Source: an archaeon (GTDB taxonomy: Archaea > Nanobdellota > Nanobdellia > Woesearchaeales > JBDRIN01). From it: DNA of 42,979 nucleotides. Positions 14,308-40,491 of this stretch are shown piece by piece. Where the stretch lies: positions 1 through 42,979 of the forward strand of contig JBDRIN010000076.1 of the NCBI GenBank assembly GCA_043815805.1, written 5' to 3'. Position 1 is the first letter of the stretch; the number at the start of each line of letters is the position of its first letter. A program made the translations under genes and the position numbers. Under the pieces are notes generated by a model. It was not told the DNA's origin and ran no database searches. It was given only the letters and a program-made list of their open reading frames with translations.

Positions 14308-14402
14308 CTTACCCCATTTCAATAGGTTAAAATGGAACAGTATGCCTAGGTTGACTAGCAGATTCAATCCTCCTGTCGGGTGTAACATTCTTGGATACCT
14401 CT

Positions 14403-15571: not shown

Positions 15572-16813
15572 TCAGTCTTCTCCTTCTTCATCCAAGTCTT
15601 CAAGATCGTCTATAGAAAGGGTCTCTTCTTTAGGAGTCAAATCCACGGCGTCTTCTGCCATCTTTTTCTTCACTTCTTTGACCTCTTTATCAGTGCCTTC
15701 GTAGATATCTGTCTGCTCGGCCTTTGCTTCTGTCCTGCCTTTCACAGGCTTCAAGGTCTCTTTAATCTCTTCTTTTACTACTTTAGGAACTTCCGGCTGG
15801 TCTTCTATTGCTTTCTCGCTTTCTGCCTTCAGCTTGGCTATCTCTTCGTCAGGGTTTATGTCCCGGAACACATCTGTGCTGACAAGTTCCAGCCTGTCAA
15901 AGGTCTCGTTCTTCTTCATCCTGCCCGTAACCTTGATTATGTTTCCCAGAAGGTCTGTCTTGGCAGGCTCTAGCTCAGATGGCTTGTCCTTCATCTCCAA
16001 GAGCTCCTCATGGGTCTTCCCCAATAACTTTTGCACTTGGTCTCTCCAGAACACTGCTCGCACATTGTCTGTGCCATCGTCTAAGAAAGTATTCATCACA
16101 TAGCTGAACTTGGGCTCTACTTTGCCGTGTTTCTCGCATTCAAAAGCGTTCTCTCTTAATCTCACCCGTTTATTGCATTCAGGGCACAATTCAAAGAAGT
16201 TTGGGTCAAAAATCTGCACAACAGTGGCCAAAACCTCTACGTTCTGGTCTTCTGCAGCCAGGTCTTTTATCTGTTTCCTTACCGCCTCCACCACATCAGA
16301 TGCTGAAGGGCCTGCCTTTATCTTTACTCCTTTAGGATTGACCTCTAGCTTGCTCTCTTCGCGCAGATGAAGCTCCTTCCGGTCATTATTCTCGCGGACA
16401 TATGCTCCTTTTATCCGGATAGTATCCCCTTCATTGAACTCGTTGAAAAGGTCTGTCTGGTCGTTCCACAACACGACCCTGATAAGGCCTGTCTCGTCTG
16501 CGATAAGAAAACTGGCTACCTTCCCCGAACGCTTCTCTGTTGAGAACTCCCGAAGCTCATATTTCCTGACAACCTTGCCGCAAACTTCAACATTATGCAT
16601 GCCAGCCAAGATGTTCTGGACCTGAAGCTTGCCAGAGACCTCGAAAAGCTTGATTCCAAGCTCATTGGCTAGGATATGGGCTGCTCCCTCTTCAGAAATC
16701 AACCCTGCGAGCTTGTCCATCTTCTGCTTGATCTTAGAGTCTAACTCTGCAGCGCTCAAAGAACCATTTTTGATGATTTTCTCTTTTATCTGCGGTAAAG
16801 GCATATTTATCAT
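15572..16813 (-). CDS. rpa: Replication protein A-like ssDNA-binding protein (OB folds plus Zn ribbon)
   Basis: N-terminal LISEEGAAHILANELGI domain, OB-fold segments (VASFLIADETGLIRVVLWND; TIRIKGAYVRENN), Zn ribbon CPECNKRVRLRENAFECEKHGK and an acidic tail DDLEDLDEEGED. Confidence 0.8.
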   Translation of the reverse strand: MINMPLPQIKEKIIKNGSLSAAELDSKIKQKMDKLAGLISEEGAAHILANELGIKLFEVSGKLQVQNILAGMHNVEVCGKVVRKYELREFSTEKRSGKVASFLIADETGLIRVVLWNDQTDLFNEFNEGDTIRIKGAYVRENNDRKELHLREESKLEVNPKGVKIKAGPSASDVVEAVRKQIKDLAAEDQNVEVLATVVQIFDPNFFELCPECNKRVRLRENAFECEKHGKVEPKFSYVMNTFLDDGTDNVRAVFWRDQVQKLLGKTHEELLEMKDKPSELEPAKTDLLGNIIKVTGRMKKNETFDRLELVSTDVFRDINPDEEIAKLKAESEKAIEDQPEVPKVVKEEIKETLKPVKGRTEAKAEQTDIYEGTDKEVKEVKKKMAEDAVDLTPKEETLSIDDLEDLDEEGED

Positions 16814-16879: not shown

Positions 16880-19800
16880 TTATGGTAAGAATGGATACTC
16901 GACTTCAGGGAGAGAAATATAATTAGAACCATAAGAAAACCCTCCAGGCACTTCTATCTCGTTGTTGTTCCCATCAATGGCCGTTACCCCAACATAATAA
17001 GACTCGCTAGTCGATTTCGGAGGCATCTGCATTATATAGAACATCATGTCTTCGTCTTCAAGATGATAGCATTTCTTGATTTCAGCGCTGGTTGAAATTC
17101 CTAGTGTAGTGAAGGTGCATGTACTGCCTGAGCAAGCCACCACCCCTCTTAAGTTTATGCGGAGGATGCTTGTATCACAATCACCTGCGATGAGCTCGTT
17201 ATAGGTATCCCCAATAGGGAACATATTAGTACCATCATAGACCCTGTAAGCAAACAGGTCTATTGCAGGTGAAGGCTCCCATTTCACAGCAATCAGGTTG
17301 CCCGGAGGATCTATTAATGTGCCTTCTAGGTCTTTTATCACCGGCGGCTCAGTTATATCCTTCATCTCAAGGGCGAACCGTATCTTGATTTGTTCTGGCT
17401 TAAAGCCTTTCTCTGGATTAGGCACAGAACTTGGGGTCTCTAGACAAAATCTATATCTATACTTATTCGGCGCACATTCTGGAGTTCCATCAGGAGCCCC
17501 TATCATGAACAAGCTCTTTTTTTCTGGTTTGTAAAGATATAATATATCAGCAGGAACATCCGGCGGCAGAATAAGCGGCCTTAGTATCTGGGCTTTGATG
17601 AATTTTCCATCCTCGTCGAATTCTACCTCGTAGAACAAGTCATTGTACTCCTCTGCATCAACGCTTGGATTGTTGGCATAAAAGGTTGTCTTGAAAGGAA
17701 GATAATAAGCGAGCTCATTATCATCAGGAACTTCCAGGAAGAACTTGTCTTCTATGAACTTTATCTTGAAGGTCTCTCCTGTGTCACCTGTAAAATTCAT
17801 CTTGCAATAACATGCGCTCTGGTTGTTCATCAGGCAATCATAATACTCCTCGACAAAATCATAATACAAATAATTATCCTCGCAAGCTCTAGAGATGACA
17901 AATCCAGCATCCTTGTTTTCCTGCGTATCATTGAACTCTTTCATCTTGTCCTCTACGCAACCGACAACACCATCTCCAGCGCATTCCTCAGCAGTCTCTT
18001 TGGCAAATTCGACGAGCTTCCTGTATACTCCTAAATCATGCTCTGCTACTGCGCTGAAATGCGGCTCCACTGTGTAGCCGCCCCAGACGCTCTGGACTTG
18101 TGCACAAGGAGGTGTGTTCTTGTATTTATCATACTGCGACACTTCTTTCCTGACAAAAGTGATATACCCTTCTGCTCCAGGAGGATCATACTTCGGCAAA
18201 ATCTTCTCCACAGTGTCAAGACCCGCCCCAACATAGTAAGGGCCAGCAATCATATCAAACCAAGCCATTATACCCTTGTCCCAGTCATTGAAGCCGCAGA
18301 AACAAGTAACTTTCCCAGGAAAGGTATAGGGATTACAGTCGACAAAATCACATTCATAAGTGCTATCAGTGCATTGTGTGTTCAGTTTCTTGGAGTGCTC
18401 TCCCGATGCAAAATCATCAAATCCTGGCTTGTCGAACTGGCAATTGCTCGGAATCATCATATTCCCTATGCTGTGTGTCCTTGTGGCCACACCGGCAGTC
18501 CCATACCCTGATTCTTTCCTGAAAAATGCAAGCGCAAAGGCATTGTCTATTCCCATACTGGCACTATACCCATAGAAAATATGCCCAAAATTCGTTGCAG
18601 GAGAGTTGGCATCTCCAAGTACCCTGTTGACCTCATCTTCCGAGAGGGAAGGCTCATCACCATTCAGCAGCACAGACATCTGGCAAGAGCCAGAACCTCC
18701 AGTATCTGCACCCAAAGAAAGCATAAGAGAAGTGTCCACGTGCGTACATTCCTCTGCCAGGTCTGGATCGTGCCTTGAAGGGATCATCGCATAGTTGTAT
18801 TTGTCTTTGCAGCTGAAAGCAGTGTCTGTGAAGATGAACTTCGAGAGCTGTTCTTCTGAATAGAAGCAGAATGGACTGTTTGCTTTGTCTCCTCCAAGAT
18901 TATCTGAAGCATAGACCTTAAAATCAAGGTGAGGACCTCCAGATTTTCCTGTGTTGCCGGATCTTGCTATGACATCTCCTTTGTTGACAACATCTCCTTC
19001 GCTCAGGCGAGCTACACTGTCCAAGTGGCTGTATCGTGTATAAAGATTCTCTCCGTGTTTCAATATTATATAATTCCCGTAATTCCCGCATTTTCCCCTG
19101 CATGCCGTAGGATCAGAACAGGGATCTCTTGGATCTGAGAGAGAACACTGGCATGTGCCTGTCCATTCCTCGCAGATCTTGAAGACACTTCCTCCTGTGA
19201 CTGCATAGACCTCGCTGCCTTTGGCCACTGCCAAGTCGATGCCGTCGTGGAAGTTCTCTTTTCCGTTCTCTGACTTTCCGTCCAGGTCTCTGTAGCCAAA
19301 GCATGATTCAGTATTGATTCTGTCGCTCTGAAGAGCTATGGGAAATACAAATGTCCCTTCCACATCTGTAAAGCCCTTCATCACGCTCTGGTGCATTATC
19401 TCAAAGTTCACTTTCTGCTTTGCCTTGGCGATCAACTTCAGACTTGCGTTCTGCTGTTTGAAAGTGTAGTCATAATTGTTCCACCCGATATCCAGGATGT
19501 GCTGGTCAAGCCTTGAGTTCATCTCATCATCGAGGTAGCCGGTTATGTTGCTTTTGAAGTCGGGATAGCATTCTTCTGTGTCGTTGTTCCACAAATAATA
19601 GACATGTTCTCCGCATTTCGGAACCGCAGGGGTGTTTACATCCTGCTTGGCATATATTCCTCCTGAACTGGCCATGTCCAGCAGTGAAGTATAATAGCTG
19701 TACTCACCTGCCTGGTCAATATAAAAAAGAGAGTTTTCTGCCCGTTGATATGTCCTTATGAGAGCTGACTGTTTTTCACCCAGGGGTTCATGGAGCAGCT

Positions 19801-19921
19801 CTGATTTGATCCTATAATTATAATTCATCTGGATATAACCATATATCAAGACGATTATTACGATTATGACCAGACCTACTATGAACACTTGCCCTTTCCG
19901 ATTCATTGTTTTTCTCATCAT
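16880..19921 (-). CDS. Class-III-signal protein carrying M23 metallopeptidase and lysozyme-like (GH73/SLT-type) murein hydrolase modules plus a beta-rich/FN3-like C-terminus (1013 aa)
   Basis: The start is taken at the ATGA overlap with the upstream stop, giving MMRKTMNRKGQVFIVGLVIIVIIVLIYGY. M23 module: NFHDGIDLAV, YTRYSHLDS, NTGKSGGPHLDFKVY (nt 18905-19348). Lysozyme-like module: NAFALAFFRKESGYGTAG...HSIGNMM...GIMAWFDMIAGPYYVGAGLDTVEKILPKYDP (nt 18131-18643). Confidence 0.8.
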   Translation of the reverse strand: MMRKTMNRKGQVFIVGLVIIVIIVLIYGYIQMNYNYRIKSELLHEPLGEKQSALIRTYQRAENSLFYIDQAGEYSYYTSLLDMASSGGIYAKQDVNTPAVPKCGEHVYYLWNNDTEECYPDFKSNITGYLDDEMNSRLDQHILDIGWNNYDYTFKQQNASLKLIAKAKQKVNFEIMHQSVMKGFTDVEGTFVFPIALQSDRINTESCFGYRDLDGKSENGKENFHDGIDLAVAKGSEVYAVTGGSVFKICEEWTGTCQCSLSDPRDPCSDPTACRGKCGNYGNYIILKHGENLYTRYSHLDSVARLSEGDVVNKGDVIARSGNTGKSGGPHLDFKVYASDNLGGDKANSPFCFYSEEQLSKFIFTDTAFSCKDKYNYAMIPSRHDPDLAEECTHVDTSLMLSLGADTGGSGSCQMSVLLNGDEPSLSEDEVNRVLGDANSPATNFGHIFYGYSASMGIDNAFALAFFRKESGYGTAGVATRTHSIGNMMIPSNCQFDKPGFDDFASGEHSKKLNTQCTDSTYECDFVDCNPYTFPGKVTCFCGFNDWDKGIMAWFDMIAGPYYVGAGLDTVEKILPKYDPPGAEGYITFVRKEVSQYDKYKNTPPCAQVQSVWGGYTVEPHFSAVAEHDLGVYRKLVEFAKETAEECAGDGVVGCVEDKMKEFNDTQENKDAGFVISRACEDNYLYYDFVEEYYDCLMNNQSACYCKMNFTGDTGETFKIKFIEDKFFLEVPDDNELAYYLPFKTTFYANNPSVDAEEYNDLFYEVEFDEDGKFIKAQILRPLILPPDVPADILYLYKPEKKSLFMIGAPDGTPECAPNKYRYRFCLETPSSVPNPEKGFKPEQIKIRFALEMKDITEPPVIKDLEGTLIDPPGNLIAVKWEPSPAIDLFAYRVYDGTNMFPIGDTYNELIAGDCDTSILRINLRGVVACSGSTCTFTTLGISTSAEIKKCYHLEDEDMMFYIMQMPPKSTSESYYVGVTAIDGNNNEIEVPGGFSYGSNYISLPEVEYPFLP

Positions 19922-20517
19922 CTCGTTGACCAAAATGCGACTGCTGCTATCTGCAGGCTCCACTTGACTGCTGTGCCAAAGGTGATGACCTCTGTCACCA
20001 TGCATACTTCTATGGCTTTGTCTCTCTCTATCCCCGGGATTATGACACATTTTTCCTGTGTCTCATCCAATAGTGGATCCCATTTCTTACCTATCTGAAA
20101 GTCTCCACCTTTCACATAGACTTTGTAGCACTCATCGCAGACCCTTGTTCGCAAGACAACTTCTGCCTCTGCCCAGGCAGCATCTTTCAGGTCTTGCCGG
20201 TTATAGGTGCCCTGGCCTGATTCATAAAGCGCAATTATATCTGCCACTATAAGTTCCTTCCCACCGAGCTCTACAGGAGAGCGCAGATAGTTCAGGAACA
20301 TCATGTCATTCCTTGTGTCGTCAAATTCCCCTTCAATGATGGCTTTCAGGGCCTTGCCGTAAAAGCTGAATATGACTGCGAAGACTATGAAGACCAGGAC
20401 TAAGACCAAGATGGCTATGCCTATGACCATCGCCCTTTGCCCTTTCTTGTTCAGTTTCAAAGAAACTGAATGCTCAAAAGACTTGTCTTTTGTTGTGTTC
20501 ATCTTTTCCATCTTCAT
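19918..20517 (-). CDS. Class-III-signal (pilin-like) protein, 199 aa
   Basis: N-terminus ...SLKLNKKGQRAMVIGIAILVLVLVFIVFAVIF. There are 4-nt ATGA overlaps with both neighbours. Confidence 0.65.
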   Translation of the reverse strand: MKMEKMNTTKDKSFEHSVSLKLNKKGQRAMVIGIAILVLVLVFIVFAVIFSFYGKALKAIIEGEFDDTRNDMMFLNYLRSPVELGGKELIVADIIALYESGQGTYNRQDLKDAAWAEAEVVLRTRVCDECYKVYVKGGDFQIGKKWDPLLDETQEKCVIIPGIERDKAIEVCMVTEVITFGTAVKWSLQIAAVAFWSTR

Positions 20518-21041
20518 CCGCTCTCTGGTTGTATTATATCTATGTGAAGAACCGCCTGCTTGAATTCTCCTTTGTCTTCGTAAGTCACAGGAAGCTTGTA
20601 GTCCATACGGTCTGTGCTGCCAAGGCCCAGGAATCTCCAGTTGGATAGGGGCAGCCAGCGGTCGTACCAGACTTTGTTGAAATATATCGGGGATTTCACC
20701 GCATCGCCGTTTGTATCTAACAGGGATATCTTGGCGCTGATATATTGATCATAAGAATAATCCATGGAGCTGTGCATATTGGTTGTCGTGAACTTATCAA
20801 GGTCTATTATGCCTGGATATGCTCTTCCTGTTTCCCTATCCACATAAGTCAATGCGTTGGGGGAATAGATTATGCGTGAATATAGGACCTCTCTTTTCAG
20901 TTCTAAGACTCTCATATCATTGACTATCAGCATCCGGAAGAGCATTATTATGACAAATACGACTATGGCAAGGATTATAAACCTCATTATCCAAAGCAGC
21001 ATATACTTTGCTGAAAATGCTTTTTTGTTGAGTCTAGCCAT
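20514..21041 (-). CDS. Class-III-signal-like protein, 175 aa
   Basis: MARLNKKAFSAKYMLLWIMRFIILAIVVFVIIMLF. It overlaps the upstream gene by 8 nt. Confidence 0.6.
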   Translation of the reverse strand: MARLNKKAFSAKYMLLWIMRFIILAIVVFVIIMLFRMLIVNDMRVLELKREVLYSRIIYSPNALTYVDRETGRAYPGIIDLDKFTTTNMHSSMDYSYDQYISAKISLLDTNGDAVKSPIYFNKVWYDRWLPLSNWRFLGLGSTDRMDYKLPVTYEDKGEFKQAVLHIDIIQPESG

Positions 21042-21984
21042 AGTACACCTTTATGCCCTCAAAAATGGCGAGGGCAACCTCATTCATCGGAAGTCCTCCT
21101 GCCTCTGGTCCGAGCTCTAGGATAACCGCGGTCTTTTGGGAGAGGAGTTTCTTGAGATCCTCGTCCGCCAATTCCAAGCTTGTTTTCCCAAATCCTTGTT
21201 TATCTTTGAAATGGTCAAGTTCCAGAATATTTAAGAGAAACAAGCATGCTAGTTTCTGTGATTTCAAGTTTAGCGCTGAGAAGTACGTGTTGACGTTCTC
21301 GTCGGAAGAGAAGTCCAGGATAACCACAAGGTCTGCGTCGCGCTCCTTCACCTTGTCTATGTTGTCTTCCCAATCATCTACTTCGTCTGCTCCATATACT
21401 TGGTTCTTGAAGATTAGCTTTATGGCTTGCTCTAGCTGCGACAGAGCAGGATCTTCTGTCCTAAAGAATATCTTCTGCTCTTTCAAGACACCTCCAGTTA
21501 TAGAAGTAGGGCACACCATAAGTATATTTAATGGCAAAAGACCGCTTTGCTCATCTATCCATATCCTGGCGTTATATTGCTGGTCATCGAAGACTTTCGC
21601 CTTCATAAAGTTAAAGCTTATTGTGTTGAACTCTGATTTCTCTACTTTGGTCTTGCTGTCCACTGCAAAATAGAAGGCTGCAGGAGTCAGCTTATCCTTG
21701 GATAGGTCCGGTCGGTATTCATAGACTTTGACGCGGTCCTCTTCAATATGTATCTCCAATGGCTTCACGCTGTTTAGGACATTATAATTGAAGTTCACTT
21801 CTCCAGGAGCCGCATGGACAGTGTCCATTATAAGAGCGATATCCCTAGCATAATAGTTTTTCCAATAGAGCGTGCCGTCTGCTATGTGGTTGACATAGGA
21901 GAACAAGGAGACAATGATCAAAACAAGAATGATCACCTCCATTATGACAAACCACAAATCTTGTACAAACCCCTTTTTATTCAT
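21034..21984 (-). CDS. Class-III-signal protein with a possibly degenerate MurNAc-L-Ala amidase (Amidase_3)-like C-terminal domain, 316 aa
   Basis: MNKKGFVQDLWFVIMEVIILVLIIVSLF. The C-terminal layout is ILMVCPT...ERDADLVVILDFSSDENVNTYFSA..SQKLACLFLLNI...TAVILELGPEAGG..NEVALAIFEGIKVYY. This mirrors the Amidase_3 pattern (ivIDpGH...aDlfiSiHaN...evyy..s..LA..i...PavLvElGf...iA.ai..gi..y) but without the His ligands. Confidence 0.6.
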   Translation of the reverse strand: MNKKGFVQDLWFVIMEVIILVLIIVSLFSYVNHIADGTLYWKNYYARDIALIMDTVHAAPGEVNFNYNVLNSVKPLEIHIEEDRVKVYEYRPDLSKDKLTPAAFYFAVDSKTKVEKSEFNTISFNFMKAKVFDDQQYNARIWIDEQSGLLPLNILMVCPTSITGGVLKEQKIFFRTEDPALSQLEQAIKLIFKNQVYGADEVDDWEDNIDKVKERDADLVVILDFSSDENVNTYFSALNLKSQKLACLFLLNILELDHFKDKQGFGKTSLELADEDLKKLLSQKTAVILELGPEAGGLPMNEVALAIFEGIKVYYG

Positions 21985-22005
21985 GTAGTATGTTTACAGA
22001 AAGAG

Positions 22006-22019
22006 TATTTAAAAACTTT
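22006..22019 (-). promoter_or_regulatory. Internal TATA-like element (minus-strand AAAGTTTTTAAATA) ~28 nt upstream of ATG 21984
   Basis: It sits in the 40-nt gap between 22025..23281 and 21034..21984. The spacing fits a leaderless transcript. Confidence 0.4.
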
Positions 22020-22024
22020 TCCCA

Positions 22025-23281
22025 TTAACTATCCTCGTCGGGTGCTTTGCAGTAGTCATAATCTCGGAACTCTATAAGTTCACATCCTCCTTCGAACCCG
22101 CAGGGATTCATGCCGCAGATATTCTTTTCCTGGCCTTCGCAGGTGCTTCCAAGTGTTGGAAGGGAATTGTCAGATTTCACTAGAAGCGTGTCGCAATAAT
22201 CCTTGCAGCTGCCGTCATTCAGCTCTAAGAGCCAGCAATCCACGTCCGGCGTATAGTGCATTCCTTCCATGCAGATGCCATAATCTTTAAGCTTGTCTCC
22301 GCACATGCAGGGGAAATCTATAGGGCCTTCTACGCATTCTATGACACATACAGCTTCGCAGTTGGTGTCTCTGTCGACGTCAGTGCATATGACTTTCTTG
22401 ACTTCTTGCGCTTTGTAGTCTGGGGGAAGATGATCTTTAGCAGTGTCGCATTCTCTTCCAAGATCGCTCAGATAATCCTTCTCTTTGCATTCTTCTTCAG
22501 AAAGCTCTGGACAGCCGAACTCAAAATACTTATATCTCTGCCTTGACTTATCATTGTATCTTGTCATATAAATATATATCTTATTGGAACGGTTGTATTT
22601 CTCTATGTAGATATCCCCGATTGGGAGCCAGCTTCCGATGTGCACGTTGGCTTTCAGAGAGTAAAGCTGCAGGTATTCGTAATTGGTCTTGGTCATCTCT
22701 TTTTTGTCTTCAAGCAGCTCCAGATTTTCATAGACCCTGTCCTGTTTTATGTTCGGACGTTCCTTGCCGCCATACTCAGACCATCCTTCTGGTGTCTTGT
22801 AGAAGCTTCCTACAAAGACTATGTCTCTTTCAAACACTTTGCAGGTCACAAGGTGTGCATCTCCATCTGCTCCGTTGCCTTCTTCTTCAAGATTGCCATC
22901 GTACAGGCAAAGGCATGCTTTATCTCCGTCTGACCGGATGCATTGGGATGGGGGGAAAAGAGATCCAGAACTATCTACTCTGCTATGGACTATGCTTGGT
23001 CCAGTAGGCCACTCCTTGTCAAAACCAACAAGGGTGTATCCTGGAGGCAAGTAATAGGTTATGCCAGAGAAAGCCAGTTTGTCAGGATTATCTAATAATG
23101 TATCTATGGTCAAGCCGAGCATCTCAAAATTCTTCAATGTTGCTTTTTCTGAATCGTCGACGCTAAAAAGCCTGCATCCTATTGTTATCAAGAGTATGAT
23201 GGCAATGGCAGCTATGATGATCTCCAGGGTTATCTTTGGAATCATCATCTCCTGAGCCTTCCTGCTCTTTAAAGAAACCAT
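22025..23281 (-). CDS. Class-III-signal protein with a Cys-rich C-terminal half, 418 aa
   Basis: MVSLKSRKAQEMMIPKITLEIIIAAIAIILLITIG. The C-terminal ~160 aa are dense in Cys (CPELSEEECKEKD...CEAVCVIECVEGPIDFPCMCGD...). Confidence 0.65.
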   Translation of the reverse strand: MVSLKSRKAQEMMIPKITLEIIIAAIAIILLITIGCRLFSVDDSEKATLKNFEMLGLTIDTLLDNPDKLAFSGITYYLPPGYTLVGFDKEWPTGPSIVHSRVDSSGSLFPPSQCIRSDGDKACLCLYDGNLEEEGNGADGDAHLVTCKVFERDIVFVGSFYKTPEGWSEYGGKERPNIKQDRVYENLELLEDKKEMTKTNYEYLQLYSLKANVHIGSWLPIGDIYIEKYNRSNKIYIYMTRYNDKSRQRYKYFEFGCPELSEEECKEKDYLSDLGRECDTAKDHLPPDYKAQEVKKVICTDVDRDTNCEAVCVIECVEGPIDFPCMCGDKLKDYGICMEGMHYTPDVDCWLLELNDGSCKDYCDTLLVKSDNSLPTLGSTCEGQEKNICGMNPCGFEGGCELIEFRDYDYCKAPDEDS

Positions 23282-23282
23282 C

Positions 23283-23894
23283 CTATGTTACCTCTATCTT
23301 GGCCTCTATAGTCCTAGCAACGTTCCCTTCTGTATCAAAGACCTTGAGATATATCTCGTAGTCTCCCTTTGTGACCTGGGTTCCTAGCCTTGTCAGCTCT
23401 AGAGGGTCTGCAGTGCAGTCTGCAGGGCCAGCCACACCCCAACTGCCTGAAATCTGACATTCTAAATATTCGTCAGCATTTTCTATCCATGCGTATAAGA
23501 TACAGTCTACGCCTTCTTCGACTTTCAAAGTCTTTCCATGGCTGATATCCACACCTTTCTCTCCATCGTCGTAGACCTTGTAGAGCCTGAACCGGACAAT
23601 GTCTGTCTTGGAAGACTCCGTGCTCTTGCTGTTATAGCAGCAATATTCTTTTCCAGGAGGACAATCCTTGTCCATAGGACTTGGTGTGCGTACATCTCCG
23701 AACTTGTCGCATTCTTCATTAGAAGTACAATATGTTAGGTCTGTGCCACCACATTTCTTGGCGCGATCAAGGAAAAGCCCTCCTTTGAAAAAGTCTGGGT
23801 AAAATATGCCAGTAACAACCAAGACAACAATCACCGTAACAAGTAATCCTAGAAGAGCTGCTCCTCCCTCGTTTCCTTTTTTAGATTTCATCAT
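23283..23894 (-). CDS. Class-III-signal pilin-like protein with a six-Cys module, 203 aa
   Basis: MMKSKKGNEGGAALLGLLVTVIVVLVVTGIF, then CGGTDLTYCTSNEECDKFGDVRTPSPMDKDCPPGKEYCC. Confidence 0.7.
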   Translation of the reverse strand: MMKSKKGNEGGAALLGLLVTVIVVLVVTGIFYPDFFKGGLFLDRAKKCGGTDLTYCTSNEECDKFGDVRTPSPMDKDCPPGKEYCCYNSKSTESSKTDIVRFRLYKVYDDGEKGVDISHGKTLKVEEGVDCILYAWIENADEYLECQISGSWGVAGPADCTADPLELTRLGTQVTKGDYEIYLKVFDTEGNVARTIEAKIEVT

Positions 23895-23912
23895 TTTGAA
23901 TTATTAATATCA

Positions 23913-25172
23913 TCAAGCTGGCGGATCTTTGTAGACTTGGAATGATGTGCCTTGGCTACGTATCATCCCACACAATCTTTTGCCTTGACTATCCAGAGGG
24001 ACTATCACCGGTCCGAGTGTTGCTTCAGTAGTGGATCCTGTGTAATGATAACAATCCCCGCCAGGCTCTGTAAAACCATACGCATATGTGTATCCTAAAC
24101 ATTCATCGCCTTGGCAATAGAAGTAAAATATTCCCCTGCTGCTAAAAACAACATCTACCATCGGAGCAGGCATAAATTTTACTTTTTCTTCAAGATAGAA
24201 ACATTTATCTTCGCCAGCATCATCCCTATAATAAATGCCTGTACAAAGTGTGAATGGGGGTTCTGGCACGTTATTCAGGGGTGCTTGGCAGAAATCATTG
24301 CGGCCCATCGCCTTGTCACTACAAGACTTGCTAGAAGCCATAGTGGTATAATAACAATTATATGCCTCTTTATTGACATTTGGCCCAGGGATCGTCTCTA
24401 CTATTCTATTATTAAGGTTGAGGAATGTCTCTACTTCATTAGCATTCCCTAACTGACAATCAGCCACATCCAGAGCTATAGGAGCAAAGAAAGAATCCTG
24501 CACGATCACAAGATAAGTCTTTGAAGAATCATACCAATGGTTTTGGTCTTCGCTGCCTTCATGTCCTGCTAAGAACACTATGACATCCATCTCCAAGGTC
24601 TTGCCTATGTATCTGGATGGCGGCTTGAAGTCGAACTTAAAGACTTGGTTGGCGCAATCTTTATTTTCAAAGCGCATCCTTCTGCCTTCAGCATCTGTTA
24701 TAGAATTCTTGTCCTCGTCCATTATATAAATCGTGCATTTGCCGACATCATCTCCTTCAGCCTCTACAAAGACTTTTAATGTCGTATCTTTCATGGCTTT
24801 GAGTTGGAGGGTGCTGCCAGATATGGGGATAAGGGTGTCTTCTCCATGATAGACATTTATGCCTTCGCTTATCTCAAGTTCACCTGGAGAGATAGTGCCG
24901 TCATCCTCAGAATCATCCTCATATGGCTCTCGGCCTAAGCAGCACACTTCCTCTGGATTGTTGCAGTCCCATGGAGCTTGGACCTCAGAAGGATGGCATC
25001 CTTCATCTCGGGGGATACATCTGCCATGGTGCACTTTCTCGCAGTCCTTGGTCTTCCTGACAGGTCCTATGCCCATCCCTATGAGAAGGCCTACCAGAAC
25101 AAGTATAACTAAGAGAATCATAATCAATTCTGCGATCAGCCCGATGCCTTCATTTGCTCTCTTATTCATCAT
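23913..25172 (-). CDS. Class-III-signal pilin-like protein with a six-Cys module, 419 aa
   Basis: MMNKRANEGIGLIAELIMILLVILVLVGLLIG, then CEKVHHGRCIPRDEGCHPSEVQAPWDCNNPEEVCC. Confidence 0.7.
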   Translation of the reverse strand: MMNKRANEGIGLIAELIMILLVILVLVGLLIGMGIGPVRKTKDCEKVHHGRCIPRDEGCHPSEVQAPWDCNNPEEVCCLGREPYEDDSEDDGTISPGELEISEGINVYHGEDTLIPISGSTLQLKAMKDTTLKVFVEAEGDDVGKCTIYIMDEDKNSITDAEGRRMRFENKDCANQVFKFDFKPPSRYIGKTLEMDVIVFLAGHEGSEDQNHWYDSSKTYLVIVQDSFFAPIALDVADCQLGNANEVETFLNLNNRIVETIPGPNVNKEAYNCYYTTMASSKSCSDKAMGRNDFCQAPLNNVPEPPFTLCTGIYYRDDAGEDKCFYLEEKVKFMPAPMVDVVFSSRGIFYFYCQGDECLGYTYAYGFTEPGGDCYHYTGSTTEATLGPVIVPLDSQGKRLCGMIRSQGTSFQVYKDPPA

Positions 25173-25175
25173 GAT

Positions 25176-25433
25176 CTATGTGCCCAGGGAGATTATCTTG
25201 CAGCATTTTTCCGGATGACAGGACGTTTGTGCTTCTGGATTATTTACCGGTTCACATTGTGTGTTTGTGTTTGTACAATAACCTCCTTCAGAGATGCATT
25301 TGGTTCCATCACCATACTGGTTTGTTGATCGGACTATCATAATCACAACTACAATCACAACCAAGAGCAGAATCACTATTGTGATTACAGTTGATAAGGC
25401 CATTTCAACGCCTTTCTTGTTTATCATGATCAC
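25176..25433 (-). CDS. Small pilin-like protein (85 aa): class-III signal, helix and six-Cys head
   Basis: MIMINKKGVEMALSTVITIVILLLVVIVVVIMIV, then CISEGGYCTNTNTQCEPVNNPEAQTSCHPEKCC. There is an ATGA overlap with the upstream paralog. Confidence 0.75.
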   Translation of the reverse strand: MIMINKKGVEMALSTVITIVILLLVVIVVVIMIVRSTNQYGDGTKCISEGGYCTNTNTQCEPVNNPEAQTSCHPEKCCKIISLGT

Positions 25434-25696
25434 TCCGTAGGGGCTGTGCCCAATCTAACGCAGCATTTCTGATCTGCGAGGCATCCTCCTCTTTCTCCTG
25501 CTTGGGCTATGTTGTTGATCTCTGTGCCTGACAAGCATTCTGATTTACAGTCTCCACCTATGCCTCGACAACCAGTCCCATCGCTGACTTGGCCTCCTGA
25601 CCTCAATATCAGCACTGCCAGAATGATAAGAACTAGCAGAGCAATTGCAGCTATAATTATCACGTTTACGCTTATGCCTTGACCTCTTTTTAACAT
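25430..25696 (-). CDS. Small pilin-like protein (88 aa): class-III signal, helix and six-Cys head
   Basis: MLKRGQGISVNVIIIAAIALLVLIILAVLIL, then CRGIGGDCKSECLSGTEINNIAQAGERGGCLADQKCC. Strong SD GGAGGTG sits 7 nt upstream. Confidence 0.75.
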   Translation of the reverse strand: MLKRGQGISVNVIIIAAIALLVLIILAVLILRSGGQVSDGTGCRGIGGDCKSECLSGTEINNIAQAGERGGCLADQKCCVRLGTAPTE

Positions 25697-25705
25697 TGTT
25701 TTTCA

Positions 25706-25754
25706 CCTCCGTGTTATACTCGGAGGAACCAGAAACTTTGTTTCTCAGTTCCTC
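25706..25754 (-). promoter_or_regulatory. 5' leader with two mutually exclusive hairpins; one pairs the SD with an anti-SD
   Basis: Minus-strand RNA: GAGGAAC-UG-AGAAAC-AAA-GUUUCU-G-GUUCCUC-CG-AGUAUAACA-CGGAGG-UGAAAAACA-AUG. Hairpin A has 7+6 bp (25723-25754). Hairpin B pairs CCUCCG with CGGAGG (25706-25726). The bases CCUC are shared by both. Confidence 0.5.
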
Positions 25755-25802
25755 ATGATTTATCAATACAACTATTTATATACTAATCCTGGTATAAGGG
25801 GT

Positions 25803-25814
25803 ATATAAAGTTTT
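25803..25814 (-). promoter_or_regulatory. BRE/TATA promoter (minus-strand AAACTTTATATA) for the small-pilin transcription unit
   Basis: It is the same word as the thpR promoter. It lies in the 137-nt gap, ~110 nt upstream of ATG 25696. A second TATA-like gtatataaat lies at 25775-25784. Confidence 0.45.
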
Positions 25815-25833
25815 TGGAAACTTCAAAGATCAT

Positions 25834-26463
25834 CTAATCATTTTCCAGGCATTCGCCTGTTTCATTGTCAAAATAGCATGTCGGTTTGTCCATCTCCCTG
25901 AACTCATCATTGCATACTTCGCACTGGGCCTTTGTTATCAAGTATTCATTCTCATCAAATTTTTGGTGCTGGGTAGCCTGTAAGTCTATGCAGTGTGCCC
26001 CTCCTGTGTTGTCCTCGAACTTGCAATGCAGGCATTCGTCTGGTCCTGGTCCCTTGTGCACAAAGCAGTATCCTTTCTCGTAGCAATGTTTCGCTTCAAA
26101 CCACCATTTGAAAAAGTGCCTGTCTTGGATTTCCTCACACGCTGCCATCTGGGATTCCAAGCTCTCCTCCCCTTCTGCGTTGAAACAACTTAAGTCACAT
26201 TTATCTGTGTCGCTATTTATTGTCAAGCAGAAACCTATAGGGTACTCCTTATTTCTCATCTCGCATATGCTTAGCCTGCCTATCTCCTCTCCTTTGTCCT
26301 TGTTCCTGCAGAGATAGAAGCTTCCCTGGCTGCATTCTTTGTCCTCTAATCCCAAAAGGCCTGGCAAATCTTTAAAAAGGCCTGCTCTTATGGGCTCTAC
26401 AAAGGCAACTAAGATTACAAATATGAGGATGACTGTGATTATTATCTGGGTCAGTGTCTGCAT
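25834..26463 (-). CDS. N-terminally anchored Cys-rich protein, 209 aa (no clear K-G cleavage motif)
   Basis: MQTLTQIIITVILIFVILVAFVEP, then a Cys-rich ectodomain (ECSQGSFYLCRNKD...CHCKFEDNTGGAHCIDL...CEVCNDEF...CYFDNETGEC). SD gagagg sits ~7 nt upstream. Confidence 0.6.
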   Translation of the reverse strand: MQTLTQIIITVILIFVILVAFVEPIRAGLFKDLPGLLGLEDKECSQGSFYLCRNKDKGEEIGRLSICEMRNKEYPIGFCLTINSDTDKCDLSCFNAEGEESLESQMAACEEIQDRHFFKWWFEAKHCYEKGYCFVHKGPGPDECLHCKFEDNTGGAHCIDLQATQHQKFDENEYLITKAQCEVCNDEFREMDKPTCYFDNETGECLEND

Positions 26464-26475
26464 ATCAAAACCTCT

Positions 26476-26607
26476 CTATCCACCAGGGAACAGGGTGTGG
26501 AATGCTTTGGCAACCTGCGGTGTTGCTGCTAATATTATTGCAACGATTATCACAACTATAAGCAGCTTCATCCAAATGTTCAATTGTCCTTTCTTGGATT
26601 GTATCAT
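26476..26607 (-). CDS. 43-aa minimal ('headless') class-III-signal pilin; below the ORF-track size cut-off
   Basis: Own translation: MIQSKKGQLNIWMKLLIVVIIVAIILAATPQVAKAFHTLFPGG*. It has the same KKGQ motif as its neighbours. TATA-like aaatatat lies ~30 nt upstream and overlaps the previous stop. Confidence 0.55.
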   Translation of the reverse strand: MIQSKKGQLNIWMKLLIVVIIVAIILAATPQVAKAFHTLFPGG

Positions 26608-26640
26608 TTTATCCTGATTAACTCATGGAAGAGCATATAT

Positions 26641-27552
26641 TTAAGTGTTTGCCTCTGCCTGGCTCACAGGGATGTATGTACAGTTCAATTCCACCAAGGT
26701 ATTTTCAGTCCATGGAAGTATTGTCGTGCCTGCCAGGCGGGCTTGCAGCCCTTCCTGGCGGAGTATTAACGTGGCTACAGTCAAGCCGACAGCAGAGACT
26801 CCTGCAACTATCAATCCTGCCGGACCAAAAGCCGGAGATGAAGACATCATAGAAGTCAGCAAGGCAGTGACTGTCCATCCACCAGCCACTATGGCGCTTC
26901 CGACAAACAGTTTCTCTGCGAAGTCATGTATTGCAGTCTCTCCTTTCACATAAAAAAAGATGACTGCCTGGTCCTCTGAGGTGTCTATGGAGGTGATTTT
27001 CAGGTCTTCCAACACTCCTTCTTTCTCCCCGACCACTTTCTCGAAACTCTCTGTGCTGTAAGGAGAGAGATAATCTATTATCTTAGGATCCTGGCGCTCA
27101 TAGGTAGATATCTTCTTGGCCACATCAGAAACCTTGTGGGTCTCTAGATATTCTACATAATCATCTATCTTAGCACTGCGCCCCTTGAACTCGTTCACAT
27201 AGCAGACATGGCAGAAAACGCCTTCGTCTTCTGGGAAAAGATTCTCTTCGCCTTTTGCCCATTGGTGCCAGCAAAGCACTTGTTCCTGGGCAAGCTTTGC
27301 TTTTATGTTCATCTTGTCGCTGCCGCTCATGTCGACGTATTGAGTCGGGCACACTATGGGCTCTGGAGGCAAGAAAAGCCTTATGGTATTGATATGTGAT
27401 TGTATGCTCTCTGTGCATTTCAAGTCTGCAATCTCAGTGGTCTGGGCATTTCTCACCATTATTATGACAAAGACTATTACGACCAGTACAACGGCTGCCA
27501 GCACGATAGCTCCCAGTTCATCCATCTGTCCTTTTTTTGTTTTCTTGCTCAT
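26641..27552 (-). CDS. Class-III-signal protein with two additional C-terminal TM helices, 303 aa
   Basis: MSKKTKKGQMDELGAIVLAAVVLVVIVFVIIMV. The C-terminus is LFVGSAIVAGGWTVTALLTSMM...GPAGLIVAGVSAVGLTVATLIL. It shares the LCW.Q..G / C.VC motif with the upstream paralog. Confidence 0.65.
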   Translation of the reverse strand: MSKKTKKGQMDELGAIVLAAVVLVVIVFVIIMVRNAQTTEIADLKCTESIQSHINTIRLFLPPEPIVCPTQYVDMSGSDKMNIKAKLAQEQVLCWHQWAKGEENLFPEDEGVFCHVCYVNEFKGRSAKIDDYVEYLETHKVSDVAKKISTYERQDPKIIDYLSPYSTESFEKVVGEKEGVLEDLKITSIDTSEDQAVIFFYVKGETAIHDFAEKLFVGSAIVAGGWTVTALLTSMMSSSPAFGPAGLIVAGVSAVGLTVATLILRQEGLQARLAGTTILPWTENTLVELNCTYIPVSQAEANT

Positions 27553-27579
27553 TTTAAGCCATTGTTTTAAGTTATGATT

Positions 27580-28470
27580 TTAAGCTATGAATTGATCGCA
27601 TTGCTCATGCAATTTGTCTGCATCTAAGACATAAGAGAAGATAGTACTCACTTCTGGGTCGTCAAGGCCTTGCCTGGCCAAGAAAATCACATATCTTTTT
27701 CCTGTCTCGAATTTCACGTCGAGCTCTACAGGGGCTCTGACTATGAAAAAAATCTGCCCATCGTCTCCGTGGAGCTGCAGCCCTCTTCCTCCTTCTGCGT
27801 ATCCTTCAAAACAGTTGGGATCTCCGCGGTATATGCTTGCACAGATGTGATCGTCGTCTGTCAAGTAATCATAGAGTGTCATCTCTATCTTTGGATTCTT
27901 GGTCGTCTGTATATATTCCCAAAACCCTTCGTACTTGGTGTCTAAACCAAAGCTTTGGTGGTCAAAACTTATCTCGTCGCAGACAAAACACACTTTCTCA
28001 TTGCCCATCCAGTCAAACAATGCTTTGTTGAATATGTCAAGTTTTCCCTCGTGGAATTGGTACCAGCATAGCCTTATCTCGTTGGATATGACATAATAGA
28101 CCATGTTCTCTGTCAGCGCGTCAAAGTCCTTGACAACTTCTCCATTATGTAGTATAGGATATTTCTGTTCTTCATCAGCGAACCGCACAGACACTTGTTC
28201 ATCTTGGAATTCTATAAGATAACGTGCACAATCAATATCAAATAAGGATTGCCTTCGGTTGATCATCTGGAGCCAGTTGCCGCCTGTGCCTCTTGTTGAT
28301 GCTTGTGTCAGCACAGATTGCCTGCAGACTGTCCTCTCTATGCCTGTATCTGTCGGAGAATTCATTATGGCCTGTATCCAGACCCACATAGACAGCAGGA
28401 CTACGGCGATGATTAGGAATATGACTAGTCTTCCAAATGTTTCTATGGCCATACCTCTTTTTGTTCTCAT
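27580..28470 (-). CDS. Class-III-signal protein, 296 aa, paralog of 26641..27552
   Basis: MRTKRGMAIETFGRLVIFLIIAVVLLSMWVW. It also has EIRLCWYQFHEGKLDIF...EKVCFVCDEISF...FWEYIQTTK. Confidence 0.65.
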   Translation of the reverse strand: MRTKRGMAIETFGRLVIFLIIAVVLLSMWVWIQAIMNSPTDTGIERTVCRQSVLTQASTRGTGGNWLQMINRRQSLFDIDCARYLIEFQDEQVSVRFADEEQKYPILHNGEVVKDFDALTENMVYYVISNEIRLCWYQFHEGKLDIFNKALFDWMGNEKVCFVCDEISFDHQSFGLDTKYEGFWEYIQTTKNPKIEMTLYDYLTDDDHICASIYRGDPNCFEGYAEGGRGLQLHGDDGQIFFIVRAPVELDVKFETGKRYVIFLARQGLDDPEVSTIFSYVLDADKLHEQCDQFIA

Positions 28471-28471
28471 T

Positions 28472-28567
28472 TTAACTTGCTGGCATCAATGAACGTGCAA
28501 TAACAATTATCACGACCATTACAATAATAGCACTAACTACGGCTAATAACACTCTTATGACTGACAT
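28472..28567 (-). CDS. Possible leaderless 31-aa single-TM micro-protein
   Basis: MSVIRVLLAVVSAIIVMVVIIVIARSLMPAS*. TATA tttataaa (28590-28597) is centred 27 nt upstream of ATG 28567. The stop lies 1 nt before the next gene's ATG. Confidence 0.3.
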   Translation of the reverse strand: MSVIRVLLAVVSAIIVMVVIIVIARSLMPAS

Positions 28568-28589
28568 GGTTAAAAACTGAGAAATTAGA

Positions 28590-28597
28590 TTTATAAA
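28590..28597 (-). promoter_or_regulatory. Palindromic TATA box (tttataaa) downstream of the hairpin block
   Basis: Read directly. The spacing to ATG 28567 fits a leaderless start. Confidence 0.35.
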
Positions 28598-28599
28598 TG

Positions 28600-28721
28600 T
28601 TTTGCTTAAAATAAGCAAAACGTTGAGAACCTTTGGTTTCGAAGAAACCAAAGTCAAGGAACGAACAAAGTGAGTAACAGAGGAGCATAGCAAAGTGAAC
28701 AAATGTTTTGATTTTGTTCAC
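28600..28721 (-). terminator. Three consecutive perfect stem-loops directly after the stop of 28724..29224
   Basis: gtgaacaaa-N9-tttgttcac (28695-28721, 9 bp). ctttggtttc-gaa-gaaaccaaag (28631-28653, 10 bp). ttttgctta-aaa-taagcaaaa (28600-28620, 9 bp). Confidence 0.5.
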
Positions 28722-28723
28722 AC

Positions 28724-29224
28724 TTATTGCCTGCAAACCCTCAGCGTCGTGATTATGGGCGTGCTGCTGTCTGGATACAGGGATATAGGCTGGAAACCTG
28801 TGGCTTCTGCAGGGGTGAACTTGTCGCAATTGCCTGTGCTCTTATTATATCCTACCGTGCCATGTTTTACAGTGAAGATGTACTCGGTACCCCAAAAATC
28901 AAGGCTCTGCGCTGTCAGATCATCTAATGTGGCATATACAAAGTCGCAGGAAGACCAACCTGTACAATCCACCTCTCCCCGCAAAGCACAGTCTTGCAGC
29001 AATTCCTGCACATTCAGGCCTCTGCATTCTGTGGTTGTCTTCAGAGCTGCCAGTATGTAATTGGTCGCTAGCTGGGTGTCAGCGTATTCTTTTTGTGGCT
29101 CTGGCTCTGATCCGACCTGATTCACTTTGAAGCTTATGAAAAAGAGCATTATTATGGCAACTAAGACGACTATGACTGCAAGGCCCATCATTTCCATCTG
29201 TCCTTTTCTTCTTATGTTTCTCAT
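28724..29224 (-). CDS. Class-III-signal pilin-like protein, 166 aa
   Basis: MRNIRRKGQMEMMGLAVIVVLVAIIMLFFISF, with the ectodomain stretch TTECRGLNVQELLQDCALRGEVDCTGWSSCDF. Confidence 0.7.
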   Translation of the reverse strand: MRNIRRKGQMEMMGLAVIVVLVAIIMLFFISFKVNQVGSEPEPQKEYADTQLATNYILAALKTTTECRGLNVQELLQDCALRGEVDCTGWSSCDFVYATLDDLTAQSLDFWGTEYIFTVKHGTVGYNKSTGNCDKFTPAEATGFQPISLYPDSSTPIITTLRVCRQ

Positions 29225-29260
29225 AGTATCTGTCCGTCTCCTCTTCTTGCCATTGTCATC

Positions 29261-29791
29261 TTAGCTGTATGCTTCCACTCTCAAGACTCCGAACGCTTTG
29301 GTGTCGTTTATGCCATCATATATATTGATTGGTATCAAGATGGCTTTTGTATCTTGGGCTGCTGTGAAATTATTATCATATACTGTATAGTTCCTCTTCT
29401 TTGGATAGAGCTGTTCCACTGTTATTCTTGAGTTTCCTAGCAGACTCCTGTAGTAGAAGAATGCTTTGCTGCCGGCGCCTTCACCCACAGAGTCCTGCAG
29501 AGCTATGATTTTGTATTTGTCCACACAGTTTATGTCAATGACTTTCTGCTGGGAACATAATAGTTCTGGCATGTTGGATACTGCGTTGGCCAGCTTGACA
29601 GCGTCGAATTGGTTGAATTGCTCTGTATCTTGTTCTATCTCCAGATACTTCACGCGGCTATAGAAAGTGAGGCCAAAGAATATCATTATGGTTATGATCA
29701 CTATGACTGCTATGGATTCTCCCATCTGGATCTGGGCTTTCTGTCCAATCTTTCCTGTCTTTCCTGTCTTTTTCACTTTTTTATTGTTCAT
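29261..29791 (-). CDS. Class-III-signal pilin-like protein, 176 aa
   Basis: MNNKKVKKTGKTGKIGQKAQIQMGESIAVIVIITIMIFFGLTF. Confidence 0.65.
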   Translation of the reverse strand: MNNKKVKKTGKTGKIGQKAQIQMGESIAVIVIITIMIFFGLTFYSRVKYLEIEQDTEQFNQFDAVKLANAVSNMPELLCSQQKVIDINCVDKYKIIALQDSVGEGAGSKAFFYYRSLLGNSRITVEQLYPKKRNYTVYDNNFTAAQDTKAILIPINIYDGINDTKAFGVLRVEAYS

Positions 29792-29792
29792 T

Positions 29793-30821: not shown

Positions 30822-30836
30822 TTTTCATCTTTCATC

Positions 30837-34581: not shown

Positions 34582-34601
34582 AAATTACCTCTTTTTTAGG
34601 A

Positions 34602-40409: not shown

Positions 40410-40491
40410 CCACCATCTTTTTTCCTTAATATACCTATTTTTAAGACTTCATATTTAAATATGTTTTGTTTTTTATCGAGGAAAGAAGTGA

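Follow-up and report, generated by a model that had tools for sequence, protein, structure and literature searches.

Large extracellular proteins with murein lytic transglycosylase domains, specific to Woesearchaeota and Pacearchaeota, have been proposed to act against bacterial hosts (fam00969; Castelle et al. 2021, PMC8204110), and GH23 proteins form part of the hypothesis of "vampiristic" Woesearchaeota (Vigneron et al. 2022, PMC9723730). Archaeal peptidoglycan hydrolases (PGHs), M23 peptidases included, kill bacteria experimentally, and M23 homologues are listed in four Nanoarchaeia genomes (PMC12352652). Here we describe a locus on contig JBDRIN010000076.1 of assembly GCA_043815805.1, of which positions 1 to 42,979 were analyzed (hereafter the window). 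The protein encoded at 16880-19921 is, as we propose from its sequence, a bifunctional murein hydrolase that is extracellular, rich in disulfides, and of predicted activity, encoded by a tiny-celled DPANN archaeon of Woesearchaeota/Nanoarchaeota type. Its homologues are named "peptidoglycan DD-metalloendopeptidase family protein" by NCBI, and their source records carry the names Woesearchaeota, Nanoarchaeota, Nanobdellota, Nanoarchaeia, and Aenigmatarchaeota.

The window protein shares with the fam00969/GH23 proteins the lineage, the large size, the extracellular location, the possession of murein-cleaving domains, and the reading that it is directed against bacterial hosts or prey, and many members of its family possess SLT where it has GH73 (PMC8204110, PMC9723730). 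Those reports, however, rest on SLT/GH23 and mention neither M23 nor the leader, the N- and C-terminal scaffold, or the pilin-like operon described below. The M23 protein Woldo of Halogranum salarium, which combines M23 with PG_binding_1, is likewise an archaeal M23 protein directed against bacterial murein, but it is small, soluble, bacteriocin-like, secreted by the twin-arginine translocation (Tat) pathway, and furnished with peptidoglycan (PG)-binding domains (PMC12352652), whereas the window hydrolase is tethered, bifunctional, encoded in an operon with pilin-like genes, and contains none of the known PG-binding domains. An earlier note, made from the sequence of this DNA, had stated that no such system was described. 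This does not hold, as large murein hydrolases of Woesearchaeota and Pacearchaeota had already been reported (PMC8204110, PMC9723730), and because of these descriptions novelty is confined to the link with the pilin operon. In the literature searched, neither a class-III-type leader, nor a shared module-swapping scaffold, nor a location at the end of a pilin-like operon is reported for these hydrolases, and no pilin-type protein with murein hydrolase domains was found; PMC9723730 contains neither "pili" nor "pilin", and PMC8204110 lacks "pili". Thus far, murein hydrolases have been the main clue to bacterial hosts of such archaea, and only as isolated large SLT proteins. What is new here is a conserved scaffold with swapped murein modules, a prepilin-type leader, and a fixed last place in an operon of about 15 genes near RPA and RadA. 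On balance, we consider it probable that this extracellular M23 and GH73 hydrolase sits on a pilin-like anchor, either in a filament or its tip or held by its helix, and opens the wall of an attached bacterium.

The gene is located on the minus strand in an open reading frame (ORF) spanning 16880-20050, which holds the start MMRKTMNRKGQVF at 19921. This start shares four nucleotides (ATGA) with the stop of the upstream gene (19918-20517), an overlap typical of genes that are translated from one operon. The hydrolase gene is the final one of a same-strand run and is followed, after a spacer of 66 nt, by RPA. ORFs on the opposite strand within 16880-19921 are short and were rejected for want of support. 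According to hydropathy, the 1013-residue product has a single hydrophobic segment at residues 11-30 or thereabouts, which is its sole transmembrane segment, and this N-terminal segment together with the 32 Cys residues indicates that the hydrolase is exported and probably disulfide-bonded. The protein is organized as follows:

16880..19921, minus strand: gene of the predicted bifunctional murein hydrolase, 1013 residues with 32 Cys, ending the pilin-like operon (ORF, Pfam, operon overlap).
19892..19921, minus strand: short basic leader MMRKTMNRKG, residues 1-10, ending in Gly (motif counts, EppA-type pilin leaders).
19832..19891, minus strand: single hydrophobic helix, residues 11-30 (hydropathy; helix 8-43 in the AlphaFold2 (AF2) model).
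19307..19831, minus strand: family-specific N-domain, residues 31-205, with two long helices, the invariant Cys103 and Cys118, and a small sheet (alignment; AF2, pLDDT 80).
18827..19306, minus strand: Peptidase_M23 domain, residues 206-365 approximately (Pfam, E 4e-22; alignments to ShyA and LytM in the PDB).
18122..18664, minus strand: GH73 (N-acetylglucosaminidase)-like domain of lysozyme fold, residues 420-600 approximately (family Pfam and PDB profile, AF2, Foldseek).
17342..18076, minus strand: family-specific conserved C-domain, residues 616-860, containing eight Cys that are invariant or almost so (alignment).
16883..17341, minus strand: tail resembling a fibronectin type III (FN3) beta-sandwich with an insertion, residues 861-1013 (weak).

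All peptides quoted in the earlier note were located, and they lie inside the nucleotide ranges given there: NFHDGIDLAV (residues 223-232), YTRYSHLDS (294-302), and GGPHLDFKVY (328-337) in the M23 part; FFRKESGYG (466-474), HSIGNMM (483-489), FNDWDKG (544-550), and KILPKYDP (573-580) in the lysozyme-like part; and AVKWEPS (878-884) in the C-terminal part.

The M23/LytM peptidase proposed from the sequence is borne out by a match of residues 224-338 to PF01551 (Peptidase_M23), with an E-value of 4e-22 and 78.6 bits against a curated cut-off of 28.7, and by the relatives found in the PDB with phmmer, which include ShyA, LytM, lysostaphin, and zoocin A. The domain is interrupted at residues 250-280 by an insert, about 25 residues long, that is rich in Cys. 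Among the expected active-site motifs, the zinc-binding HxxxD (H225-D-G-I-D229, both residues being invariant in the M23 alignment) and the conserved His299 of YSHL are in place, but the HxH motif is not: this position, which aligns to PHLHY of ShyA, reads H331-L-D333 (encoded at about 18923-18931 of the window), with Asp as the third zinc ligand. The M23 domain might accordingly be catalytically dead and serve for binding or activation as in the LytM factors EnvC and NlpD, leaving the cutting to the glycosidase alone (in relatives, to the amidase), and weak NCBIfam matches to the activators ActS and NlpD would fit such a function. Known degenerate LytM factors, however, lack several ligands, whereas in the window protein a single one is changed, to a residue that also binds metals, and HxxxD, His299, and His331 are kept. 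Furthermore, the relatives that were retrieved have sometimes HLD (57 motif matches) and sometimes HLH (37). The genome scan with the M23 alignment retrieved bacterial HLD-type M23 genes in addition to the related archaeal loci, and the pattern [GK][PAQ]HLD[FL]K[VI]Y (loci L015-L084) recovers M23 genes not in archaea only but also in bacteria, namely in Treponema, Streptomyces, Mycetocola, Desulfosporosinus, Verrucomicrobia, and Alphaproteobacteria of the Holosporales type. As HLD is common among relatives and occurs in bacteria, it is no private defect of this protein. We read it as a naturally occurring replacement of His by Asp at the third zinc ligand, which varies the motif but does not amount to its loss; peptidase activity is predicted, and we regard a dead M23 domain as highly unlikely. 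The locus also draws attention to this naturally occurring HxD form of the M23 active site, which many bacteria share.

The second module had been assigned to the lysozyme superfamily, with a "GH73/SLT-like E-S-G" context. In the Pfam scan, the full hydrolase protein yielded neither a match to PF01832 (Glucosaminidase/GH73) at E ≤ 1 nor one to PF01464 (SLT/GH23). An exhaustive HMMER search over 1.84 billion representatives retrieved many proteins that share only the lysozyme-like segment. In an alignment of 28 such homologous segments, which are 27-43% identical to that of the window, 25 match PF01832 (best E 2e-09), and a weak SLT_4 match was obtained for only one. Glu470 (RKESGYG), two Trp, and one Tyr are invariant in all 28 segments, and we infer from the motif that Glu470 is the counterpart of the catalytic Glu in GH73 enzymes. 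The family profile of the segment matches the GH73 structures 8yxk, 6fxo, and 4q2w in the PDB. An AF2 model of the module (pLDDT 86.4, pTM 0.82) has pneumococcal LytB (7pj3) as its best Foldseek match (E 4.9e-5, probability 1.0, TM-score 0.52), and the top 16 matches are all GH73 enzymes, comprising LytB, Acp, the FlgJ-type hydrolase 2zyc of Sphingomonas, AtlE, Ecd09610, FlgJ, and Auto, while SLT-type structures appear at E > 1. Because family-level Pfam matches, PDB profile matches, and Foldseek all agree, the module is a divergent GH73-type glycosidase domain; a Cys-rich insert lies within it at about residues 499-540. An assignment to SLT, suggested by a MAFFT alignment to the true SLT domains which the relatives P0002, P0003, and P0009 carry in the slot of this module, was rejected, as it is outweighed by these three lines of evidence. 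The original call was thus right in kind and the module is real, but of its two candidate families only GH73 stands, and the profile and structure comparisons identify both enzymatic segments, M23 via Pfam and PDB and GH73 via the family profile and Foldseek. In the two folds, most of the catalytic residues are intact.

A search of representatives with the hydrolase returned 51 clusters with E-values up to 1e-30 and 595 with E-values up to 1e-10. From the family, 44 members were chosen solely for their common N-terminal leader and N-domain and were then scanned with Pfam, which revealed a wide choice of enzymatic modules:

Peptidase_M23: 25 of 44 members.
SLT: 20 of 44 members.
Amidase_2: 9 of 44 members.
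Glucosaminidase (GH73): 4 of 44 members.
YkuD: 2 of 44 members.
3D: 1 of 44 members.
VanY: 1 of 44 members.
Lysozyme_like: 1 of 44 members.

The module order varies as well, with GH73 or Amidase_2 preceding M23 in P0004, P0003, and P0009, and SLT or GH73 following M23. Across the family, one scaffold consisting of the N-domain, the C-domain, and the FN3-like tail thus carries exchangeable murein-specific modules. The N-terminal 205 residues are conserved over the family in the alignment. The C-terminal portion of about 400 residues, which had been described as beta-rich/FN3-like, is family-specific and contains the eight conserved Cys; its larger part (residues 616-860) lacks any family, PDB, or PHROG match, and a weak FN3 signal is limited to the last 150 residues or so. 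Here, Pfam fn3 (PF00041) is matched by 4 of 11 family members (best E 5.6e-4) but not by the C-terminus of the window protein itself, and the family profile of the tail matches fibronectin (1fnf, E 3.5e-4) over short stretches only.

The exchangeable enzymes all act on bacterial-type murein, which is the strongest argument for murein as the substrate. To our knowledge, such DPANN archaea are not expected to build murein, and the target murein is therefore probably foreign. Alternatively, the enzyme could make space for a filament or apparatus in a murein- or pseudomurein-like layer of the archaeon's own, as FlgJ or VirB1-type enzymes do. In monoderm type IV secretion systems, PG hydrolases are encoded within the operon of the apparatus, as is the GH73 enzyme FlgJ, and the window hydrolase gene likewise sits in an apparatus-like operon and has FlgJ among the Foldseek relatives of its GH73 module. 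We give this possibility very little weight, however, since no wall-synthesis genes were found within the 43-kb window, the seven murein-specific module types on one scaffold suggest a fit to diverse foreign walls, and surveys treat archaeal hydrolases as directed against bacterial murein and not against the wall of the producer (PMC8204110, PMC12352652).

Foreign murein could also serve as food. The surface enzyme would then digest free murein fragments or necromass and supply a metabolically reduced archaeon with amino sugars and amino acids, with no specific host and no breaching of walls. Recycling of cell-wall material has been ascribed to DPANN archaea (PMC9723730, PMC11537232), and with such a range of modules, VanY and YkuD among them, murein could be degraded completely. 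Against this, tethering makes an enzyme ill suited to harvesting an insoluble polymer, except where the cell is attached to that polymer, and the linkage within one operon to pilin-like proteins and to giants resembling adhesins is better explained by contact-dependent use, so that we deem pure scavenging improbable. The most parsimonious reading is that the enzyme serves to breach the wall of a bacterial partner.

This operon linkage begins with the N-terminus of the hydrolase itself, MMRKTMNRKG/QVFIVGLVIIVIIVLIYGY (here and below, a slash follows the Gly at which the leader ends), in which a short basic leader precedes about 20 hydrophobic residues. A cleavage site of the prepilin-peptidase type is predicted between Gly10 and Gln11. 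The leader motif, [KR][GAS] and then 20 hydrophobic residues, was found in 67 of 72 representatives of the hydrolase family; at -1, 33 of these leaders have Gly, 22 Ala, and 12 Ser, and Gln occupies +1 in 37 of the 67, as it does in the window hydrolase. The same type of N-terminus recurs in the genes that precede the hydrolase, and these are in turn preceded by genes for giant proteins:

19918..31316, minus strand: fifteen more same-strand genes before the hydrolase, 14 of them with a [KR][KR][GA] leader and one hydrophobic helix, 85-419 residues.
25176-25433 and 25430-25696, minus strand: two tandem small pilin-like genes of 85 residues (KKG/VEMAL) and 88 residues (KRG/QGIS) (leader motif, homologues).
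31324..42948, minus strand: three giant Cys-rich proteins (1085, 1935, and 818 residues), upstream of the pilin-like genes (Pfam, hydropathy).

In total, 15 of the 16 consecutive genes that end with the hydrolase possess N-termini of [KR][GA] plus a hydrophobic stretch, the member without the motif being the gene at 25834-26463, and if only ORFs of at least 100 residues from 31316 to and including the hydrolase are counted, 13 of 14 start with [KR][KR][GA] and a hydrophobic helix. Examples are KKG/QMQHVF, RKG/QMEMMG, KKG/QMDELG, KRG/MAIETF, and KKG/FVQDLW. Both the pilin-type N-terminus and the place of the hydrolase at the end of a pilin-like cluster were thus recognized correctly from the sequence, and the cluster proteins are candidate pilins or minor-pilin-like proteins as judged by their N-termini.

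Two of these genes fill an apparent intergenic gap (25173-25833) and encode the 85- and 88-residue proteins, which consist of a prepilin-like leader, a strongly conserved hydrophobic helix, and a short Cys-rich tail. Their homologues are three tandem genes of about 89 residues in the related locus L004 (6912-7733) and an 83-residue gene in L001 (3441-3692), and the hydrophobic helices of these small proteins are near-identical across the window, L004, and L001. In size they are similar to the small major pilins of Methanococcus, and their size and position make them candidates for the major filament subunits.

The closest parallels to these N-termini come from Methanococcus maripaludis, whose EppA-processed pilins have leaders of 5-13 residues that end in Gly and are followed by a conserved Gln at +1 (PMC3875500); a pilin-rich type IV filament (TFF) system 1 has been found in methanogens and DPANN archaea (bioRxiv 10.64898/2026.04.22.720090). 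The leader form of the hydrolase and of the cluster agrees with such EppA-type pilins, and the Methanococcus pilin sets (PMC3875500; TFF system 1) also resemble the window locus in the hydrophobic helix and the large number of genes per locus. One very large member with a functional C-terminal domain and a presumed episymbiotic lifestyle are the traits that recall the minor pilins PilX1 and PilX2 of Saccharibacteria with their large accessory domains (PMC11623550). The window locus differs from the type IV pilin systems in that it offers no ATPase, platform protein, peptidase, or match to a pilin family or fold, and the Glu at +5 of the EppA-type signature is missing from the hydrolase; several of its cluster neighbours are acidic at +2 to +4.

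If the hydrolase is part of such a system, its precursor would be inserted via the hydrophobic helix, the basic leader of 5-10 residues would be taken off by a class III (prepilin) peptidase whose gene would lie outside the locus, elsewhere in the genome, and the hydrolase would join other pilin-like proteins in a short structure resembling a type IV filament or in a tip complex; failing a filament, the helix would at least hold the enzyme on the cell surface. Once it is presented to an attached bacterium, the M23 metallo-endopeptidase would cut peptide stems or cross-links and the GH73-type glycosidase would cut the glycan strand, and this local cleavage might open the sacculus and thereby permit contact, attachment, or access to the cell contents.

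Several observations weigh against this reading. No Pfam or NCBIfam pilin family (e.g., PF07790 or PF04021) matches any of the cluster proteins, a single Class_IIIsignal trace in L001 (E 0.19) being meaningless, and the Pfam matches of the 43-kb window include no pilus ATPase, platform protein, or A24 prepilin peptidase; none came to light either in the DNA around the gene in 14 related loci (up to 10 kb on each side). Nor was an ORF with a Walker motif of the secretion-ATPase type found in the window and these 14 loci, in a scan by a crude regular expression that divergent ATPases could escape. The modelled N-domain (pLDDT 80), in which a long helix at 8-43 is followed by another at 47-85, by a third one, and by a small sheet, resembles a helical hairpin and not a classical pilin head; Foldseek returned no PDB match for it at E < 1 and no pilin head fold, and there was no Pfam, NCBIfam, or PHROG match. 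A [KR]G motif followed by a hydrophobic stretch is equally compatible with a plain signal-anchor. On the enzymatic side, the lysozyme-like segment taken alone (residues 400-615) gives no Pfam match at E ≤ 0.01, the M23 domain, whose peptidase activity is predicted, has Asp and not His as its third zinc ligand, and bacterial murein as the target is presumed, as is any host. Because no pilin family, fold, or assembly gene was found, the term "pilin-type" is founded on motif, gene order, and gene number. Of the proposal that the enzyme is presented on the surface or a filament to breach a wall, the breaching role stands on the swappable murein modules, but the mounting on a filament is left without pilin fold, family, or assembly genes.

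These same absences would be expected if the hydrolase were a membrane-tethered ectoenzyme with an uncleaved signal-anchor and no filament existed. Its roughly 15 neighbours would then form a bitopic surface complex or coat, and the enzyme would digest the murein of touching bacteria or debris; most cluster proteins are indeed large (160-420 residues) and Cys-rich, unlike typical major pilins. On the other hand, the [KR][KR][GA] motif with its frequent Gln at +1 is kept far beyond the needs of a signal-anchor, the tandem genes of about 85 residues with near-identical helices across distant metagenome-assembled genomes (MAGs) look like major pilins, and those neighbouring giants that have an N-terminal hydrophobic segment (the 1085- and 1935-residue proteins) start with ordinary Sec-type N-termini and no class-III-like leader. 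We consider this explanation rather unlikely. A more far-reaching proposal is that the 15 pilin-like genes, the giant adhesin-like proteins, and the hydrolase together form an undescribed wall-piercing organelle derived from a type IV filament, with the hydrolase as a filament or tip subunit, by which DPANN archaea of Woesearchaeota/Nanoarchaeota type would attach to bacterial hosts and open their walls; this is possible, though we hold it to be doubtful. If true, it would be direct molecular evidence for some DPANN archaea as episymbionts or predators of bacteria, with modules matched to the wall chemistry of the host. The locus addresses the question of the hosts of most Woesearchaeota, Pacearchaeota, and Nanoarchaeota and that of DPANN life on bacteria, and it would turn a vague clue into a defined, testable apparatus for the interaction between DPANN archaea and bacteria.

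Lysozyme-like and M23 domains are united on one polypeptide in phage tail-tip and virion lysins such as gp13 of phi29, and PrgK, TcpG, and TraG are PG hydrolases of monoderm conjugation systems. The window hydrolase resembles both groups in the combination of a glycosidase with an endopeptidase, in its proposed place in an apparatus, and in the proposed local breaching instead of bulk lysis. The logic proposed here is similar, and in function the tail-tip lysins of phages and the hydrolases with which secretion machines open walls are the nearest analogues, with the accessory-domain minor pilins of Saccharibacteria close as well (PMC11623550). The M23 domain matches phage tape-measure, tail, and endolysin families in PHROGs and the virion proteins Gp16 and "internal protein" in the PDB. 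Outside M23 and GH73, however, there is no homology to phage lysins, and the N- and C-domains have no PHROG match. Unlike these lysins, the hydrolase is encoded in an archaeon and accompanied by pilin-like genes, and in several MAGs its locus is chromosomal and adjoins RPA and RadA. A viral or prophage origin was rejected, as PHROGs are matched only via M23 and the chromosomal synteny with RPA and RadA argues against it.

The archaeal host named in the earlier note is confirmed by the gene set of the window, which includes RadA (Rad51 and HHH_5 domains), RPA (Rep_fac-A_C), a uS2 of 200 residues, and a TRAM protein. LigT and a PIN/MazE-like pair are encoded as well. The conserved downstream neighbour of the hydrolase is

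15572..16813, minus strand: RPA gene (Pfam, synteny).

In the spacer between the two, a TATA-like TTTATAAA is located at 16857-16850, 37-44 nt upstream of the RPA start. As TTTATAAA resembles an archaeal TATA box, RPA would be transcribed apart from the operon.

Synteny was assessed by blastp of the window proteins against the ORFs of 14 archaeal loci. Locus L004 (JGI) reproduces the window with the order Big_13 giant, about 15 small genes, hydrolase, RPA, RadA, TRAM, uS2, and a family 2 glycosyltransferase (GT2). The colinear arrangement, in our labels G3-p1-p2-p3-p4-(p5)-p6 ... p10-p11-p12-hydrolase-RPA(-RadA), is found in L004, L009, and L021 and partially in L013, L010, L007, L001/L008, L003, and L005. 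In L011, a 766-kb Nanoarchaeia contig, p11- and p13-like genes follow a shorter hydrolase homologue and precede RPA, so the order is rearranged there. The locus is vertically conserved in archaea. Because the order of giant, pilin-like, hydrolase, and RPA genes recurs in several independent MAGs, this is a native locus and the contig is no chimera; a bacterial or chimeric contig, which had been considered as an explanation, is ruled out by this synteny together with the archaeal markers. The same pilin-like operon with hydrolase and RPA(-RadA) is present in L007, L010, L013, and L021, which are titled "uncultured Methanosarcinales archaeon". The RadA of L021 is 72% identical to that of the window. 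These loci resemble those of Woesearchaeota and Nanoarchaeota, and the Methanosarcinales label of the four bins looks doubtful.

Among the giant proteins, which are candidate adhesins of the hydrolase locus, a significant immunoglobulin-like (Big_13) match was obtained only for the 1935-residue protein. In the 1085-residue protein (31324-34581), Big_13 and fn3 signals are weak and remain under the Pfam cut-offs. It contains three Cys-rich repeats (...DIDCGG.C..C...), a transmembrane helix at residues 749-773, and a cytoplasmic tail of about 300 residues rich in Lys, Pro, and Gln, and its homologue immediately precedes the pilin-like genes in L004 and L009. The giants at 34602-40409 (1935 residues) and 40492-42948 (at least 818 residues) contain about 5% Cys, and the latter has no hydrophobic N-terminus. 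As its ORF begins 31 nt from the end of the window, the locus may extend further.

On the other side of RPA, three minus-strand genes at 12590-15434, between YdjM and RPA, encode a Cys-rich exported protein of 284 residues without family assignment, a protein with DUF2334, and a GT2 glycosyltransferase that shows weak chitin-synthase-like matches; a GT2 gene is also found near the L004 locus. These three genes possibly constitute a surface-polysaccharide unit. Between a DUF4382 gene and RadA (9884-10562, minus strand), a PIN-domain protein of 133 residues and a MazE/AbrB-type antitoxin-like protein of 91 residues are encoded, a pair that looks like a toxin-antitoxin module.

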